Source: Candidatus Moraniibacteriota bacterium (lineage in GTDB: Bacteria; Patescibacteriota; Minisyncoccia; Moranbacterales; UBA1568). Taken from it: a DNA stretch of 64,000 nt. Positions 4,343 through 58,423 of the stretch are shown piece after piece (position 1 is the stretch's first letter; the number at the start of each line of letters is the position of its first letter). The notes under the pieces were generated by a model. The model was not told where the DNA came from and did not search any database. It worked only from the letters and a program-made list of their open reading frames with translations. The stretch covers positions 279,488 to 343,487 of the forward strand of contig CAVURJ010000001.1 of NCBI GenBank assembly GCA_963743885.1, given 5' to 3'. The position numbers were made by a program, and so were the translations under genes.

Positions 4343-4560
4343 TAGAAATAAAATCCGAAATCCGAAATTCTAAACACGAAACAAATCCTAATCTTGAAAT
4401 CCAAAACGAAAAACAAGGGTTTGAAATTTCAGTTTTTTGATTTTGAATTTGTTTAGAAATTAGGAATTAGATATTAGAAATTTCAAAAGCGATTGTTTTC
4501 GATAGGATTGTTTGATATCGATAGTGCAGAAGAAAAGAAAAACGGATATAAAAAGCCAAA
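4343..4560. repeat. AT-rich low-complexity intergenic repeat tract (aaatccgaaat / gattttgaattt k-mers)
   Basis: Shares k-mers with tracts at 15186-15326, 43545-43684, 48595-48692 and 48880-48920. Confidence 0.5.
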
Positions 4561-15185: not shown

Positions 15186-15326
15186 ATTGAAGAAATTCAA
15201 AATTTAAAATCACAAGCTCCAAATAAATTCAAAAACTATAATTTTAAAAATAAGATGCCCTTAAGATACTCTGAGTTTTGATATTGCAATTTATTTGATA
15301 TTTGTAATTTTGAATTTGGTGCTTTT
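15186..15326. repeat. AT-rich intergenic repeat (shares ~130 bp of motifs with 43545-43684)
   Basis: cacaagctccaaataaattcaaaa ... ttttgaatttggtgctttt versus tacaagctccaaataaacttcaaa ... ttttgaatttggtgctttc. Confidence 0.55.
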
Positions 15327-35373: not shown

Positions 35374-35412
35374 CCCTGCCCGAATCGCTACGCGAAACGT
35401 TGCGGGCGGGGC
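35374..35412 (-). repeat. Single copy of the GC-rich ~40 nt unit that is tandemly duplicated inside pth
   Basis: The reverse complement ggccccgcccgcaacgtttcgcgtagcgattcgggcagg matches 43084-43122 almost exactly. Confidence 0.7.
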
Positions 35413-39004: not shown

Positions 39005-39628
39005 ATGGCTGCTCAAAAAGTGGTCGTCGATGGGTCGACTGTCTCGGCTCGTCAGATGAAGGATTTCTGGCGTCAGGTCGACGACGGATCGATTACGGGC
39101 GAGATACTCCAAGCAGTTCTTGAACATCGTAACCCGTTCGAGAAAGTGATCAACAATGCGATGTTCACCGTCACCTCCGATGGTCGCACCGGCGAAGAGT
39201 TCATTCGTGATTTCAAGCGGAACGACTACCGCGTCGGTGACTATGCATCGGATGTGATGCGGAAGCCCGCCTTCGTCGCCACGAACGACAAGACGTACCG
39301 ACTTGGCCTCATCAAGGGAGAAGAATTCTCCGATGCCGAGCGGTCGACGAAGAATATCTGTGCTGAAGCAGCTCGTCGAGGTTGGCTCACGCCACCGGCG
39401 GAAGTCGCGCCGCTCCTTCGGGAGACGGTCTCCGATGAAGAGATCAAGCATCTCGGTCTGTGGTGGCTCGTCGTTATGCACGAACCGATTATCGATTCCG
39501 ATGGCGGTGCGCGCTTGCTCGGCCTCCACCGCCACGGTGGTGGCCAGTGGCTCGACACGCGCTACGGCAAGCCAGGCCGTCGGTGGGGTCGTGAGGATGG
39601 GTTCCTGTTCCTTCTCCCGCAAGATTAG
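39005..39628 (+). CDS. Hypothetical protein (C-terminal ~40 aa duplicated downstream)
   Basis: 207 aa ORF with AGGAGAG SD. No family recognised. Confidence 0.55.
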   Translation: MAAQKVVVDGSTVSARQMKDFWRQVDDGSITGEILQAVLEHRNPFEKVINNAMFTVTSDGRTGEEFIRDFKRNDYRVGDYASDVMRKPAFVATNDKTYRLGLIKGEEFSDAERSTKNICAEAARRGWLTPPAEVAPLLRETVSDEEIKHLGLWWLVVMHEPIIDSDGGARLLGLHRHGGGQWLDTRYGKPGRRWGREDGFLFLLPQD

Positions 39629-39921: not shown

Positions 39922-40098
39922 TTGGTGGGTGGCGAATCGAAGGGTGGTGGCAAAGATGGAAAGCCGTACGTTTCCGATGGCGATGCGAACTTGCTCAACC
40001 TCAACCGCAACGATGATGGCCAGTGGCTCGACACGAACTACGACAAGCCAGACAATCGGTGGAATCGTGAGAATGGGTTCCTGTTCCTTCTCCCGCAA
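39922..40098 (+). pseudogene. Partial duplicate of the 3' end of the gene at 39005
   Basis: DNA 40015-40098 is ~85% identical to 39540-39622 (…GQWLDT.Y.KP..RW.RE.GFLFLLPQ). It has only a TTG start and no N-terminal domain. Confidence 0.5.
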
Positions 40099-42908: not shown

Positions 42909-43532
42909 CTAGTGTTTCGTAGAGAGCCAGGTGAGAATCTCATCTTTCGCTTTCGGGAAGATTCCAGAAAGTTGCGCGAGCTCGTCGGAAGAGAGTTTGC
43001 CGAGGACGTAGTCGTGCGAAGGCCCGCCCACACCGCTTCGCGGAGTGCTTCGGGCAGGTTGGCAGGCGCCGAGGACCTCGGTCGGCCCGCCCGCAACGTT
43101 TCGCGTAGCGATTCGGGCAGGCCGGCCGATACCGAGACGGATGCGGAAGAAATCCTGGAGCCCGAGTTTGTCGATGATATCTTGCACGCCGTTGTGTCCG
43201 GCAGCGCGAGACGAGTCCGTCGTGCGGAGCGTGCCTGGGGCGATGTCGAGGTCATCATGGACGATAGTGATGTCGGACGGGGAGAGCTTATAGAAATGCA
43301 TGATCGATTGGACGGGTGTGCCGGATGTGTTCATGAAGGTTTCTGGTTTCATGATGATGACTTTTTCGGAGCCGATCATACCAGAGGAGAGCTCAGCCGA
43401 CAGCTTCTTGTCGGATCTGAACTCTTCGAAGCCGAGCTCCTTGCGGAGGAAGTCGACGAAGAGGAAGCCGGCGTTGTGCCGAGTCATGGAGTACTTTTCC
43501 CCTGGATTACCTAACCCTATAATTAATTTCAT
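42909..43532 (-). CDS. pth: Peptidyl-tRNA hydrolase with a ~33 aa in-frame insertion
   Basis: GLGNPG..Y..TRHNAGF, HDDLD, RLGIGRP...HDYVLGK. The inserted stretch between GIGRP and HDYVLGK is encoded by the tandem GC-rich repeats at 43021-43132. Confidence 0.85.
   Translation of the reverse strand: MKLIIGLGNPGEKYSMTRHNAGFLFVDFLRKELGFEEFRSDKKLSAELSSGMIGSEKVIIMKPETFMNTSGTPVQSIMHFYKLSPSDITIVHDDLDIAPGTLRTTDSSRAAGHNGVQDIIDKLGLQDFFRIRLGIGRPARIATRNVAGGPTEVLGACQPARSTPRSGVGGPSHDYVLGKLSSDELAQLSGIFPKAKDEILTWLSTKH
43021..43132. repeat. Tandem GC-rich repeat (two diverged ~50-60 nt units) lying in frame inside the pth coding sequence
   Basis: ggcccgcccacaccgcttcgcggagtgcttcgggcagg... followed by ggcccgcccgcaacgtttcgcgtagcgattcgggcagg... 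. The second unit is nearly identical to 35374-35412. Confidence 0.7.
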
Positions 43533-43544
43533 ATTTAAATTCAA

Positions 43545-43684
43545 AACTCAAAATTACAAGCTCCAAATAAACTTCAAATTTCAAATACAAAACCTAGAAC
43601 GTTTTGAATGTTTGGATTTTGATATTGTGATTTATTTGGAAATTGGGATTTTGAATTTGGTGCTTTCGGAGAGTATTTCATGTG
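43545..43684. repeat. AT-rich intergenic repeat, paralogous to 15186-15326
   Basis: Shared blocks tacaagctccaaataaacttcaaa and gattttgaatttggtgcttt. Confidence 0.55.
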
Positions 43685-47540: not shown

Positions 47541-47562
47541 TGGATATTCTGTAAGTTTTTCC

Positions 47563-47712
47563 GTTCCACGGTCTCCGTCGAACATCCCTGACTCGCTCTG
47601 CCGAACAGGGGGCTGTCCGCTCTGAGGCCCGAAACGGTCCCGAGCGTCACGCCCGACCGTTGCCGGCTCGCTCATCACGGATGTGGCCGCCGTCATCCGA
47701 AGGAAGGAAAAA
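47563..47712. repeat. Copy P of a ~150 bp intergenic repeat (second copy Q at 54307-54456)
   Basis: ttccacggtctccgtcgaacatccctgactcgctctgccgaacagggggctg... versus ttccacgatcttcgtcgaacatttctgactcgctctgtcgaacggggagctg... are ~80% identical over ~140 nt. Confidence 0.7.
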
Positions 47713-47755
47713 CATCACAGAAATCCATTATGAGGTAAGATGAAAGAAGGAGAGT

Positions 47756-48520: not shown

Positions 48521-48692
48521 TATCGGCTGTTTTTCAGTGCGATTGCCAGGCCATCGAGATGTCTTTTGTGGGACATGGCGGTGGCCTGGTTGTGTTTTTG
48601 AAATCCAAAAATCAAAATCACAAATCCCAAACAAGTTCCAATGACCGAAATTCAAAATCCGAAACGTTTTGAGTTTTGATGGTTGGGATTTA

Positions 48693-48870
48693 TTACCAAG
48701 TGTAGTGAGTGAAACGAGAGTTTACTCTCGTTTCCGAACGGAGCGCAGGTAAAATCGGGTTGAATACCTCGCGGCTTGCCCGCCTAGCCGGCGAGGCTGG
48801 CCGCAGAATAAAACGAACATCAGTTCGTTTTTAGGGTCCAGGGCTTGCCCTGGGGTGAATACCCGTTATA
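48693..48870 (+). repeat. Copy Y of the ~170 bp structured repeat family (with a 21 nt internal insert)
   Basis: Aligns with 58263-58423 and with the reverse complement of 1382-1540. Hairpins with CUUG loops and compensatory stem changes. Confidence 0.75.
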
Positions 48871-48920
48871 ATTTATTTGTGAATTGTGATTTTGAATTTT
48901 GTATTTTTAAGGAAAAAGAT

Positions 48921-50199: not shown

Positions 50200-50338
50200 G
50201 GATTTCGGCCGGGTTCCGGCCGGTTTTTGACCGCTTGGGCGGTTTTTTCTTTTGTTGGGCTCTTTGCAGGGAAGGGCTTGGGAGGGTATAATGATAGCCA
50301 CAGTGTACCGTCACGCATCCAACGGATTTTTTTCTTTT

Positions 50339-50524
50339 GGTAACCCTCTCAAATCTCACCGCCTGTTATGACTCAAAAAGAGCTTGTCCGAAAAAACCAT
50401 CTCCGTTCCGGCTGCAAAATCCGAAAAGCTTGTCGGGTTATCACTGATAGCCCTTTGCGTTTTTCGACTTTTTCGCTCGAAACGGAGATGGTTTTTTCTG
50501 GACATGAGATTTGAGAGAGTTACC
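50339..50524 (+). repeat. 186 bp element with ~20 bp terminal inverted repeats, directly upstream of ftsA (copy 1)
   Basis: Termini ggtaaccctctcaaatctca ... tgagatttgagagagttacc. Internal inverted repeat aaaaccatctccgtt / aacggagatggtttt. 85-90% identical to 51790-51975. Confidence 0.8.
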
Positions 50525-50528
50525 ACCT

Positions 50529-51788
50529 ATGGCCAAAGGGCATTATCACATCGGTCTGGATATCGGATCAGCCAACACCCGTGCCGTCATCGCGCAAGAG
50601 ATTGCCGATGATGAGCTTTTGCGTGTCGTTGGTGTCGGTACCGCGCCTTCGTCCGGGATGCGTCGCGGCGCGGTCGTTGATGCTGAAGCAGTCGCTAAGG
50701 TCTGCAATGAAGTGCTCGAGCATGCGGAGCGCATGGCGGGACATCCGGCTGAGAGCGTGACCGTGAGCGTGACTGGGGCCGAGATCGCCTGTCAGGATGC
50801 GCTTGGTGTCGTCGCGGTTGGCCGCGCCGATGGCGAGGTGACCGAAGACGATATGTCGCGTGCCTTCGAGGAAGTGCAGGCGCGGCTCGTCCTGCCGCTC
50901 AATCAGGAGATCATCCATGTCGTGCCGAAGGATTATCGGCTCGATGACCAGAAGAATATCAAGGATCCGCTCGGCATGCGCGGTGTCCGGCTCGAGATGA
51001 ACGCGTTCGTCGTGACAGGGAGCGCTTCGCACCTCAAGAATCTTTCACGCAGTCTGGAACAGGCCGGCACGTCACCGGATAGCTTCGTTGTTGAGCCGCT
51101 CGCTTGCGCGGAATCAGTGCTCCATCGCAAGCAGAAGGAGCTTGGGACAGCGATCATCAATATCGGCGGTGCCACGACATCACTTGCGGTATATGAGGAT
51201 GGCGATTTGCTCCATCTGGCGGTTTTCCCGGTCGGTGGCGACCACATCACGAACGATATCGCCATCGGACTCCGCACGTCGATCGAGGTAGCGGAAGCGG
51301 TCAAGCTGCAGTATGGCAGTGCGATCTCTGATGATATCGCTAAGAAGGAAGAGATCGACCTCAACCTCTTTGATACGCACGAGGAAGGATCTGTTTCCCG
51401 TCGACACGTCGCGGAGATCATCGAGGCGCGCCTCGAGGAGATTTTCCTCTTCGTCAATGCGTCGCTCAAGGAAATCGGCCGCGAAGGTTTGCTTCCGGGC
51501 GGTGTCATCCTGACGGGTGGGGGTGCACTTCTGCCAGGTATCGTTGAGCTCGCGAAGGATACGCTCAGACTGCCGGCGCAGATCGGATATCCGAAGCCAC
51601 TGGGTGGCATCCTGGACCAGGTGGACAGCCCGTCATTCGCGACCGTGATTGGTCTTGTACTGCTCGCAAGAAATACCCATGTCTCTTCGAAAGGATTCTC
51701 GTCCCAGAAGGTCTGGAACAAGATGCCAGAGGGGATGCAGGGTGCGATCGAGAAGCTGAAGCACTGGTCAAAACGGTTCCTGCCGTGA
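50529..51788 (+). CDS. ftsA: Cell division protein FtsA
   Basis: Actin-like ATPase. HIGLDIGSANTRAVIA phosphate-1 motif and FtsA-specific domain architecture. Start set at ATG 50529, outside the repeat. Confidence 0.85.
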   Translation: MAKGHYHIGLDIGSANTRAVIAQEIADDELLRVVGVGTAPSSGMRRGAVVDAEAVAKVCNEVLEHAERMAGHPAESVTVSVTGAEIACQDALGVVAVGRADGEVTEDDMSRAFEEVQARLVLPLNQEIIHVVPKDYRLDDQKNIKDPLGMRGVRLEMNAFVVTGSASHLKNLSRSLEQAGTSPDSFVVEPLACAESVLHRKQKELGTAIINIGGATTSLAVYEDGDLLHLAVFPVGGDHITNDIAIGLRTSIEVAEAVKLQYGSAISDDIAKKEEIDLNLFDTHEEGSVSRRHVAEIIEARLEEIFLFVNASLKEIGREGLLPGGVILTGGGALLPGIVELAKDTLRLPAQIGYPKPLGGILDQVDSPSFATVIGLVLLARNTHVSSKGFSSQKVWNKMPEGMQGAIEKLKHWSKRFLP

Positions 51789-51789
51789 G

Positions 51790-51975
51790 TAACTCTCTCA
51801 AAATCTCACCGCCAGTTACAAGTCGAAGAATGCTTGTCTGTAAAAATCACTCCCGTTCCGGCTGCAAAATCCGAAAAGCTTGTCGGGTTATTGCTAATAG
51901 CCCTTCGCACTTTTCGACTTTTTCGCTCGAAACGTGAATGATTTTTTCTAGACATGAGATTTTGAGAGAGTTACC
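51790..51975 (+). repeat. 186 bp element with terminal inverted repeats (copy 2), between ftsA and ftsZ
   Basis: gtaactctctcaaaatctca ... tgagattttgagagagttacc. Same orientation and length as copy 1. Confidence 0.8.
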
Positions 51976-52184
51976 GAGCGGATTTTTCCAAACACAGAAA
52001 CAGACACTTTTCCCTTATCAGAGCCTCGTTTCTTGACGAGAGGACTTTTTCGCTGCCATTGACATCGTATCTCCGCGTATGATACAGTGGACAGTCAAGA
52101 AGGCCTGGAGCTTTGTCAGAGCTTCGCGGTGGATGTAGAATAGCTGTACGGCATTTTTTTGTAACCAACCTTAAGGGGACACAT

Positions 52185-53414
52185 ATGGCGGAGATCAAGC
52201 CTGATATCGAGACGTTTGCGAAGATCAAGGTGGTCGGTGTCGGCGGATCAGGCGGCAACGGCGTAGCGCGGATGGTGGATGCCAAGATCAAGGGCGTCGA
52301 GTTCGTCGCTATCAACACGGATGCGCAGGCACTCCACAATTCGAAGGCACAGGAGAAGATCCATATCGGTAAGAACCTGACGAAGGGTCTTGGTGCTGGT
52401 ATGAATCCGGAGATCGGACGTCAGGCAGCCGAAGAGAATCGCGATGAGATCCAGGAAGTACTGAAGGGTGCTGATATGGTATTCGTCACCTGCGGTCTCG
52501 GTGGTGGTACTGGATCTGGTGCGGCTCCGATCGTTGCAGAGACAGCCAAGGAGCTCGGCGCACTCACCGTTGGTGTCGTGACCAAGCCGTTCGCATTTGA
52601 AGGTTCGCAGCGTCGCGCGATCGCCGAAGAAGCGCTCGAGAATCTCAAGGACCGCGTCGACACGCTCATCACTATTCCGAACGACAAACTGCTTTCCATC
52701 ATCGATCGCAAGACAACCCTCGTGAATGCCTTCCGCATCGTCGATGATGTGCTCCGCCAGGGCGTGCAGGGCATCTCTGACCTCATCACTAAGCCGGGCA
52801 TCGTCAATGTCGACTTTGCTGACGTGCGTGCCATCATGGAAGATAGCGGCAGCGCTCTTATGGGCATCGGCATCGCAGCTGGTGAGAACCGTGCAGTCGA
52901 GGCGGCCAAGGCGGCCATCAACAGCCCGCTTCTTGAGCTTTCGATCGATGGTGCGAAGGGTGTCCTCTTCAATATCTCCGGTTCGAGCGACCTCACGATG
53001 CTTGAGATCAACGAAGCGGCCAATATCATCACTGAGAATATCGATCCAAATGCCAAGGTTATCTTCGGTGCTGTGACCGACGACCAGATCCGCAAGGGCG
53101 AGGTCCAGATCACAGTTGTCGCGACTGGTTTCGACCTGCCGCGCGCGAAGGAGCCGGTCGGGCTCATCAACCGCTCGACGACGGTCGCACACACGCGGAC
53201 AGTCTCGACCCCGATGGCTGATGAGATGATTCGCGATGAGGAGATCTTCGAGGAGACAATCGCTTTCCCGTCGAGGAAGATGGAACAGCCGGCGATGATC
53301 ATCGAGGAGAAGATCCAGCCGCGCACCGCCGCTTCGCGTGTCGAGACAAAGGAGCTCGCCGAAGAGGACGATCTCGAGATTCCGGCGTTCATCCGCCGCA
53401 AGATGAAGAAGTAA
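52185..53414 (+). CDS. ftsZ: Cell division protein FtsZ
   Basis: GGGTGSG tubulin signature, NTDAQAL, T7 loop. AAGGGGAC SD before ATG 52185. Confidence 0.95.
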
Positions 53415-54251: not shown

Positions 54252-54306
54252 TTTTTAGCATTTACATTCGTTTGTTTTTTACACTCCTCCTCCTTTTCAT
54301 TTTTTC

Positions 54307-54456
54307 TTCCACGATCTTCGTCGAACATTTCTGACTCGCTCTGTCGAACGGGGAGCTGTTTGTTCTGAGGGCTGAAACAGCCCCGAACGCCACGCTCGAC
54401 CGTTACCGACTCGCTCATCAGAAATGTTACCGCCGAGAGACCGGAGGAAGAAAAAA
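54307..54456. repeat. Copy Q of the ~150 bp intergenic repeat
   Basis: See 47563-47712. Confidence 0.7.
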
Positions 54457-54544
54457 TGAAAAGGAGGAGATGTTTAGAACGAATAGACGAGCGTGAGTAT
54501 GGTATTCTGTGTAGGTCGGCGTTAAGTTTGCATGAGTCCGCATT

Positions 54545-58210: not shown

Positions 58211-58262
58211 CCGCAACAGCGGCGACAAGAAAGGGGCTTTCCACAAGAGAGCTCCTTTTCAA

Positions 58263-58423
58263 TTACCAAGCGGAGTGAGTGAAACGAAAACTTGTTTTCG
58301 TTTCCGAACGGAGCGCTGGTAAAATCGGGTCAGATACCCCGCGTCTTGCCGCGGAACAGGACAATCCGACGAAAGGAGGATTGTACGGGGTGCGGGGCTT
58401 GCCCCGCGGTGAATACCCGTTAT
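58263..58423 (+). repeat. Copy Z of the ~170 bp structured repeat family, upstream of tRNA-Pro(GGG)
   Basis: ttaccaagcggagtgagtgaaacgaaaacttgttttcgtttccgaacggagcgctggtaaaatcgggtcagatacc...gggcttgccccgcggtgaatacccgttat. Confidence 0.75.

Follow-up and report, generated by a model that had tools for sequence, protein, structure and literature searches.

In a Candidatus Moranbacteria genome, the cell-division gene ftsA carries a copy of a long palindromic element on each side, copy A before its start codon and copy B at its stop codon, within the 64-kb stretch of DNA analysed here (the window; coordinates are listed in Table 1). We consider it highly probable that this element is a non-autonomous, non-coding palindromic repeat resembling miniature inverted-repeat transposable elements (MITEs), that it belongs to a previously undescribed Moranbacteria family, and that it inserted twice around ftsA. 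The unit is repeated, folds as a hairpin, is absent from orthologous sites, has homologues at unrelated loci for which empty sites are found, covaries along its stem and contains no conserved open reading frame (ORF). A preliminary description of this DNA had offered two readings, a MITE that inserted twice or a conserved cis-regulatory leader of two division genes. The first of these is supported by the empty sites in relatives, the homologues at unrelated loci, the terminal inverted repeats (TIRs) and the lack of conserved coding, albeit with no consistent target-site duplication and with no wide scatter of copies seen.

Sequence and fold of the two copies

The two copies are 84.6% identical, differing in 29 of 188 alignment columns. 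A 37-nt block of copy A (50404–50441) is identical in copy B, and a 33-nt core occurs exactly twice in the window as against no occurrences in 100 shuffles. The sequence thus agrees with the preliminary description of a 186-nt unit with TIRs of about 20 nt (GGTAACCCTCTCAAATCTCA / TGAGATTTGAGAGAGTTACC), an internal inverted repeat, which is present in copy A, and a repeated core. The second copy, which had been placed in the same orientation at 51790–51975, is also there, with its start moved to 51788/9.

RNA folding, which the preliminary description had proposed, gives strong hairpins for both copies. The minimum free energy (MFE) is −87.5 kcal/mol for copy A (z = −10.9) and −68.5 kcal/mol for copy B (z = −8.5), and in neither case was any of 200 shuffles as good. 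The architecture consists of a 20-bp terminal stem, a 26-nt bulge on the 5′ arm only, a long middle stem with small internal loops, and an 8-bp apical hairpin. It is the whole element, not the ends alone, that makes up one long imperfect hairpin, and the same asymmetric bulge is present in the MFE structures of all four copies now known. The copies are AT-rich (37–45% GC). Bacterial MITEs are about 50–500 bp in length and carry TIRs, and the element, at 186–188 nt with 20-bp terminal repeats, falls within that definition.

Empty sites in syntenic relatives

FtsA homologues place the window in Candidatus Moranbacteria (candidate phyla radiation (CPR)/Patescibacteria), the nearest relatives having 76–80% FtsA identity. 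The relatives, whose contigs and loci are labelled L001–L017 together with the other comparison sequences, share the gene order S26 peptidase, HisRS, (HIT, S21), YqeY, YbeY, diacylglycerol kinase (DAGK), ftsA, ftsZ, NrdR, ComEC. The spacer between the DAGK gene and ftsA is 329 nt in the window, compared with 118 nt in L001, 143 nt in L002, 111 nt in L004 and 148 nt in L017; it is not spanned by L016, a contig that starts 98 nt before ftsA. The ftsA–ftsZ spacer is 396 nt in the window and 216, 278, 202 and 252 nt in the same four relatives, respectively, and in L016 it is 380 nt including an unrelated 131-nt element. At both sites the excess in the window approximates the length of the element, and in the spacer alignments the element is a single block missing from every relative.

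The preliminary description had asked whether relatives carry the element at ftsA and ftsZ. It is absent from both ftsA sites in five syntenic Moranbacteria (L001, L002/L003, L004, L016 and L017, with 98 nt covered on the 5′ side in L016), and a covariance-model search of the relatives' loci found no element. Counting the two further copies described below, an empty-site counterpart exists for all four copies, so that the family is polymorphic for presence and absence, which is evidence of past mobility.

The 131-nt element of L016 (positions 1375–1505) lies 16 nt after the ftsA stop codon of that contig, whose FtsA is 79% identical. It has terminal repeats of about 19 nt (ACCCCGCACTAA.TCTGC) with TTG on both flanks; it is MITE-like, and hit the same spacer independently. 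This unrelated TIR element, taken together with the other repeat families in the window, argues that the spacers flanking ftsA are permissive landing sites.

Homologous copies at other loci

Two further copies were found by pattern searches. A pattern built on the two termini matched one contig, L005 (the same locus as L010), and a pattern for the apical hairpin matched one metagenome contig, L006. These copies are 187–188 nt in length, 62–72% identical to the window copies and 79% identical to each other. Each folds on its own to the same architecture, with −73.7 kcal/mol (z = −9.4) for L005/L010 and −73.0 kcal/mol (z = −9.9) for L006. A covariance model built from copies A and B only scores them at 99 and 88 bits, respectively, whereas the best other match in the window reaches 13 bits. 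The exact 21-nt core has no match in the GTDB species genomes (a set without the source genome) or in IMG/VR, and viral contigs gave no match to the apical and terminal patterns. One copy is present in the 22 kb of L010, as against two in the 64-kb window.

The L005/L010 copy lies between nrdD and a small glycyl-radical ORF. The spacer at this site is 224 nt when filled, compared with 34 nt in L007 and 25 nt in L009, whose NrdD proteins are 93–95% identical. We considered whether the element had disrupted nrdD in L005 and rejected this, as the split into a 704-aa protein and a small glycyl-radical ORF is the norm of the clade. The arrangement there is a 704–705-aa NrdD, a 61–65-aa ORF with the glycyl-radical motif (CEVWTRVMGY) and then the activase (L010 10001–12525; L007 10001–12338; L009 3698–6035), and among the 120 matches listed the NrdD homologues are all about 704 aa.

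In L006 the neighbours of the copy are a glyoxalase-family gene on one side and a small membrane-protein gene on the other, and the copy is antisense to each of them. The empty site is represented by L015, where the two genes overlap by ATGA. Comparison of L006 3640–3960 with L015 1520–1650 indicates that the insertion moved the two overlapping genes apart, with 16 extra bases giving the upstream gene a new TAG stop; the downstream ATG lies 3 nt after the hairpin.

The database label of L005, ‘uncultured Bdellovibrionales’ (CAZBFG010000009.1), would imply spread across phyla. This was rejected, since its NrdD is 78–95% identical to Moranbacteria proteins and the neighbouring genes match Moranbacteria contigs; the L005/L010 contig is probably misbinned or mislabelled. 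Judged by sequence, the family thus appears so far confined to Candidatus Moranbacteria, L006 being a metagenome contig without established taxonomy.

Logan contigs L011 and L012, from two runs, both end at the same base within the nrdD-site copy, 83 nt after nrdD. A repeat-induced break would explain this, which suggests that there are more copies in that organism. A Logan contig carrying ftsA (ERR12035942, 1471 nt) has both its ends in the 37-nt block that copies A and B have in common. Such repeats fragment short-read assemblies of these genomes.

Covariation along the stem

A plain MAFFT alignment mis-registers the middle stem, with little covariation by RNAalifold, and a covariance-model alignment was used instead. 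Such an alignment leans towards the structure of the model; independent single-sequence folds give the same architecture. Standard pairs make up 90.7% of the pair cells in this four-copy alignment, and in 14 of the 69 pairs both partners have changed. No shuffle out of 500 attained the observed values, and sliding the partners by 1–3 columns left 0–3 such pairs. The terminal stem columns are 97% paired across the four copies, and in the mid-stem both partners have changed in 10 of 40 pairs. Between copies A and B there are five compensatory pair changes (four C-G to T-A and one T-A to C-G) together with a matched A/T insertion. In L006 the outer GTAAC/GTTAC is replaced by GTGTC/GACAC, and this covariation of the outermost bases indicates that the terminal bases belong to the element. 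Covariation along the stem therefore implies that something preserves the hairpin, be it selection on the single-stranded DNA or RNA form, or conversion from one arm to the other.

As to the strand concerned, the signs are mixed: RNA of the strand complementary to the window plus strand folds more stably in all four copies, and three of the four are sense to their neighbouring genes. A·C mismatches number 12 and G·T pairs 5 over the four copies, which are not independent of one another.

Junctions and target site

At the nrdD locus the empty site reads TAG-CA-TACT-ACAAAAT and the filled site TAG-AA-TACT-C-[AGTAAC...GAGAGAGT-TACT]-ACAAAAT, with TACT on both sides and one extra C. The filled site in L006 has 16 extra bases (CGCTTTAGCGCGTCAA), the element, and then TAT before the ATG. 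At the window sites, comparators carry TACC at the position of the right end of the element (L001 CCGTAAGTTACC, L004 TATACC). Read from these few junctions, TACC/TACT could mean that the target is preferably TACY, that a short duplication has since been obscured by change, or that the agreement is fortuitous.

Coding capacity, known RNAs and transposase genes

The element has no transposase and no conserved coding capacity, as is usual for a MITE. Each of the six frames is broken in one copy or more and none is conserved across copies, and a pseudo-protein joining all stop-free six-frame translations of the four copies had no match at E ≤ 1 among 5.8 billion proteins. In a search of the window against Rfam 15, tRNAs alone passed the gathering threshold; at E ≤ 10 the element gave generic hairpin (miRNA model) matches of 26–31 bits against gathering scores of 100–249. 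A promoter scan showed no promoter-like site within the element, and the window ORFs scanned include no gene for a reverse transcriptase or an integrase.

Other known kinds of element were tried as candidates and do not fit. The template/variable repeat of a diversity-generating retroelement, or a retron, was rejected for want of such a gene nearby. The ends TGGTAAC/GTTACCA (copy A) and AGTGTC/GACACT (L006) are unlike the RYYYAAC/GTTRRRY of integron attC sites, and ftsA is syntenic in all relatives. For repetitive extragenic palindromes (REPs) and the REP doublets forming hairpins (REPINs), the ends ((A/G)GTAAC or AGTGTC) and the AT-richness do not fit, and there is no Y1 transposase among the 50 window ORFs.

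Position of the copies relative to ftsA and ftsZ

The start of ftsA is the ATG at 50529: the product matches a database entry in length and sequence, and is collinear with those of relatives, which start MSKGHY.... The element does lie directly upstream of ftsA, as had been noted, with a gap of 4 nt to this ATG. The accompanying idea that its terminus supplies an ATG at 50511 proved mistaken. Position 50511 is a TTG in the right terminal repeat, in frame with ftsA and taken as a spurious first start-like codon of the mechanical ORF; an ATG within the element at 50504 is out of frame with ftsA. The first base of copy B is also the third of the ftsA stop codon (TGA, 51786–51788), and from the end of the copy to the ftsZ ATG at 52185 there are 209 nt. 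As copy A ends just ahead of the ftsA start and copy B begins at its stop, the copies flank ftsA.

Both genes have their own conserved predicted promoter. The ftsA promoter pair TTTGCAG...GGTATAAT/TATACT is kept in L001, L002, L004 and L017 at a spacing of 17/18, the remainder of the spacer having diverged, and in the ftsZ promoter TTGACAC and TATGATA[G/C]AGT are invariant in four genomes. Since the conserved ftsZ promoter lies downstream of copy B, copy B is outside the ftsZ leader; the preliminary description had taken it for a leader upstream of ftsZ, and it is found at the ftsA stop codon instead. From the promoter prediction, copy A would occupy about +40 to +225 of the ftsA transcript. 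The terminator-like hairpins that follow the DAGK gene are predicted to set that gene apart from the ftsA transcription unit.

Table 1. Features of the element and of the ftsA–ftsZ locus, in window coordinates
Feature	Position	Strand	Description
Copy A	50339..50524	+	186 nt; long imperfect hairpin in the predicted ftsA 5′ untranslated region (UTR), ending 4 nt before the ftsA ATG; covariance-model score 215 bits
Left TIR, copy A	50339..50358	+	GGTAACCCTCTCAAATCTCA; pairs with 50505-50524
One-sided bulge, copy A	50359..50384	+	26 nt with no partner in the 3′ arm; first bases CACCGCC/CAACGCT conserved
Middle/upper stem and apical hairpin, copy A	50385..50504	+	From the MFE fold and the A/B alignment
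Apical hairpin, copy A	50435-50453	+	GGGTTATC-ACT-GATAGCCC
Right TIR, copy A	50505..50524	+	TGAGATTTGAGAGAGTTACC; equals −24 to −5 of the ftsA AUG
Copy B	51788..51975	+	188 nt; orientation as copy A; covariance-model score 216 bits
ftsA coding sequence	50529..51788	+	419 aa; 100% match to a 419-aa database protein; FtsA/SHS2 Pfam domains
ftsZ coding sequence	52185..53414	+	409 aa; conserved AAGGGG ribosome-binding site
Predicted ftsA promoter	50263..50292	+	TTTGCA-18-TATAAT, from promoter scan
Predicted ftsZ promoter	52059..52088	+	TTGACA ... TATGATACAGT; conserved in relatives; 84 nt downstream of copy B
Two terminator-like hairpins	50205..50250	+	3′ of the upstream DAGK gene (stop 50199)

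No Shine–Dalgarno sequence is recognisable before ftsA (50505–50531) in the window or in relatives, and ftsZ (52170–52187) has its invariant AAGGGG 6–7 nt before the ATG. We considered a Shine–Dalgarno role for the terminal GAGAGAG of the element, which is 8–9 nt before the ATG in copy A and L006. It was rejected, as GAGAG pairs poorly with the CCUCC anti-Shine–Dalgarno sequence and in L005 the next ATG is 32 nt away from the copy.

Proposed history and consequences of the insertions

On the reading that we favour, copy A would have inserted in the ftsA 5′ UTR, close upstream of the start codon, and copy B directly after the stop codon. The family would propagate or persist as a hairpin, with compensatory changes that maintain roughly 70 bp in spite of drift in the primary sequence. 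Both copies would be co-transcribed with ftsA from its conserved predicted promoter. In the mRNA, copy A would form a hairpin of about −87 kcal/mol with its 3′ arm over −24 to −5 of the AUG, so that ribosome loading would be hindered unless the hairpin were melted or cut by an RNase III-like enzyme. Copy B would form a 3′ hairpin and might be a determinant of processing or stability. By analogy with the repeats compared below, ribosome occlusion, RNase III cleavage and altered mRNA stability at ftsA are all plausible. We would see any such effects on expression as by-products of a selfish insertion that permissive spacers tolerate, and not as a regulatory design of ancestral origin.

Several points weigh against this account. 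There is no consistent target-site duplication over the four sites and none at copy A, copy B or L006, the comparators for the window sites being distant (77–80% FtsA identity). There are four independent copies in all, and the two in the window are adjacent. The copies are old (62–85% identical), and current mobility is therefore unproven. The 50 window ORFs are housekeeping genes throughout; none encodes a transposase or a Y1/RAYT (REP-associated tyrosine transposase) enzyme, and no full-length insertion sequence with matching ends (AGTAACTCTCTCAAATCTCA) was found in the window. Covariation in the stem could reflect selection on an RNA function rather than mobility. Finally, two insertions bracketing one essential gene would be expected by chance in about 3% of cases, by our own estimate for random placement among about 65 spacers.

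Alternative explanations

A variant of the mobility reading that concerns mechanism is that the element moves as a single-stranded DNA hairpin, carried by an HUH/Y1 enzyme in the manner of REPIN–RAYT or IS200/IS605 and inserting by TACY without duplication. We regard this as rather unlikely. It would account for the inconsistent target-site duplication and for the preservation of the hairpin by covariation over the full length and not at the ends alone. It would also fit the TACC/TACT found in the nearest empty site, at the position of the right end (GTTACY), for three sites (L001/L004 for copy B, L004 for copy A and L007 for nrdD). However, this rests on four junction pairs, some with distant comparators, and the L006 termini GTGTC/GACAC mean that TACY is not universal. 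Moreover, a perfect 20-bp repeat placed right at each end is a typical trait of DDE-type elements, whereas IS200/IS605 ends are subterminal hairpins; the heads of REPs (GTAG/CGTC tags) are absent, and no Y1/RAYT gene was seen in the window.

It is also possible, but in our judgement unlikely, that the element is mobile in origin and has since been domesticated, being kept now to regulate ftsA. The 5′ hairpin would gate translation, and both copies would act as RNase III sites that trim a monocistronic ftsA mRNA and set the FtsA:FtsZ ratio. The place of the copy A 3′ arm, at −24 to −5 of the AUG, would suit such a role, as would the location of both copies on the ftsA sense strand within the predicted transcription unit. 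Copies A and B have diverged by 15%, yet five compensatory pairs and a compensatory indel keep both stems; it is somewhat unlikely by chance that two copies bracket one gene; and Correia repeat-enclosed elements (CREE) and enterobacterial repetitive intergenic consensus sequences (ERIC) provide precedents for RNase-mediated effects. Nevertheless, the compensatory differences may predate insertion, having arisen in the source copies. The family is found at unrelated genes in either orientation to transcription (L006 being antisense), and in 4/4 copies it is the strand complementary to the ftsA sense that folds more stably as RNA. Relatives manage without the element, and the unrelated element in the same spacer of L016 argues for permissiveness and not for function.

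Quite improbable, in our view, is a broader proposal that combines elements of these two: a hairpin-dependent spread in reduced CPR genomes without duplication, as single-stranded DNA or via RNA and docking by TACY, with the ftsA pair co-opted as double-stranded RNA sites for processing and translation gating that set FtsA against FtsZ dosage. If true, the co-opted pair would be the first case in the CPR of a division gene under post-transcriptional control derived from a mobile element.

The second reading of the preliminary description, a conserved cis-regulatory leader common to ftsA and ftsZ, is rejected as very improbable. It drew on the same-orientation copies in the division-gene cluster and on the abutment of copy A to the ftsA start. 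Both spacers lack the element in the five syntenic relatives, and the placement between promoter and start holds for copy A only, copy B being in the 3′ flank of ftsA and upstream of the ftsZ promoter. In addition, Rfam yields no match, and homologues adjoin nrdD in one case and a glyoxalase-family gene in the other.

Scarcely credible at all is a structured small-RNA gene or an attC-type integron site flanking a cassette: a length of about 185 nt and a rod-like fold with an internal bulge do resemble 6S RNA, and palindromic sites flanking a single gene do resemble attC-bounded cassettes, but the element has no 6S or other Rfam match, no internal promoter-like site and no synteny in relatives, ftsA, a core gene whose locus is conserved, is no cassette, and the ends (GTTACCA in copy A, GACACT in L006) are unlike RYYYAAC/GTTRRRY.

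Comparison with known repeat families

The MITE-like reading is best judged against Correia/CREE, ERIC and bcr1, whose traits include TIRs, RNA stem-loops, co-transcription, compensatory changes (in bcr1) and effects on RNase III cleavage or mRNA stability (PMC3184786; PMC2649163). CREE/NEMIS of Neisseria are likewise non-coding and intergenic, 100–160 bp in length with TIRs of about 26 bp, and are often co-transcribed; they vary in presence and absence among related genomes (PMC2649163; PMC3184786). They also form a long RNA hairpin, which in CREE can be bound and cleaved by RNase III with altered expression, a property that can only be supposed for the element here (PMC2649163; PMC3184786). 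Unlike the element, to which they have no sequence similarity, CREE have a TA target duplication, an IHF site and promoter-creating ends, none of which we found in it, and they number hundreds of copies per genome compared with two in 64 kb.

ERIC/IRU of enterobacteria and bcr1 of the Bacillus cereus group are imperfect palindromes of about 127–155 bp, situated in intergenic regions that are transcribed and forming RNA stem-loops as the element does (PMC3184786). In bcr1 compensatory base changes keep the structure, and ERIC has orientation-dependent effects on mRNA stability (PMC3184786). They differ in sequence, host phylum and length, the element having 187 nt; ERIC has TA flanks and bcr1 5-bp direct repeats, in contrast to an element without consistent duplication. 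Compared with ERIC and bcr1, the 26-nt one-sided bulge is characteristic of the present family.

REPINs resemble the element in being hairpin-forming and non-autonomous, with no target duplication (in the element, none that is consistent), a hairpin under selection and a location in short spacers by stop codons. They are about 70–110 nt, with two short GC-rich REPs, GTAG/CGTC heads and a RAYT gene, whereas the element has 187 nt, is AT-rich and forms one hairpin with long perfect TIRs, and no RAYT gene was found in the window.

No new kind of system is revealed; the family is best read as a new one of the sort represented by Correia/CREE, ERIC and bcr1. In the small, tightly packed genomes of CPR/Patescibacteria, non-autonomous mobile repeats have received little attention in print, and in the full-text literature we found nothing relevant; the family would be the first of its sort to be described from a CPR lineage. 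Here a Moranbacteria genome has several families of 130–200-nt hairpin repeats that its relatives lack, and one of these families sits at an essential division gene, 4 nt away from its start codon and 0 nt away from its stop codon. The locus offers a natural test case of how a hairpin of about −87 kcal/mol over the ribosome-binding region is tolerated. For annotation, the ftsA start is corrected, and such repeats are seen to break short-read contigs and to create spurious ORF starts.

Other repeats in the window

At least three other families of hairpin repeats are present in the same 64 kb and none of them in the relatives' loci; the source genome is repeat-rich compared with its relatives. 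A palindromic family of 170–200 nt has two members, 80% identical, at 47545–47715 (after HisRS) and 54277–54479 (after NrdR). The latter is a single hairpin of −96.7 kcal/mol (z = −10.7) with 34-nt terminal repeats. A multi-hairpin unit of about 150 nt (ATTACCAAG..AGTGAGTGAAACGA...TCGTTTCCGAACGGAGCGCAGGTAAAATCGGGT...) occurs three times, at 1401–1541 (−), 48689–48853 (+) and 58262–58400 (+). Its first hairpin shows compensatory changes between copies, and Rfam gives no match; the unit may be a further repeat family or else a structured RNA not yet described.

There are four occurrences of an AT-rich palindromic repeat of about 130 nt, at 4351–4484, 15193–15325, 43537–43666 and 48601–48907. In the last of these the arms are parted by the multi-hairpin unit, which indicates a nested insertion. 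Two 130-nt direct repeats at 39493–39622 and 39969–40098 are 85% identical at a spacing of 476 nt, in a region whose ORFs have no Pfam match. Finally, the same 36-nt GC-rich hairpin is found at 35375–35410 and 43086–43121, 7.7 kb apart, in opposite orientation and 100% complementary.

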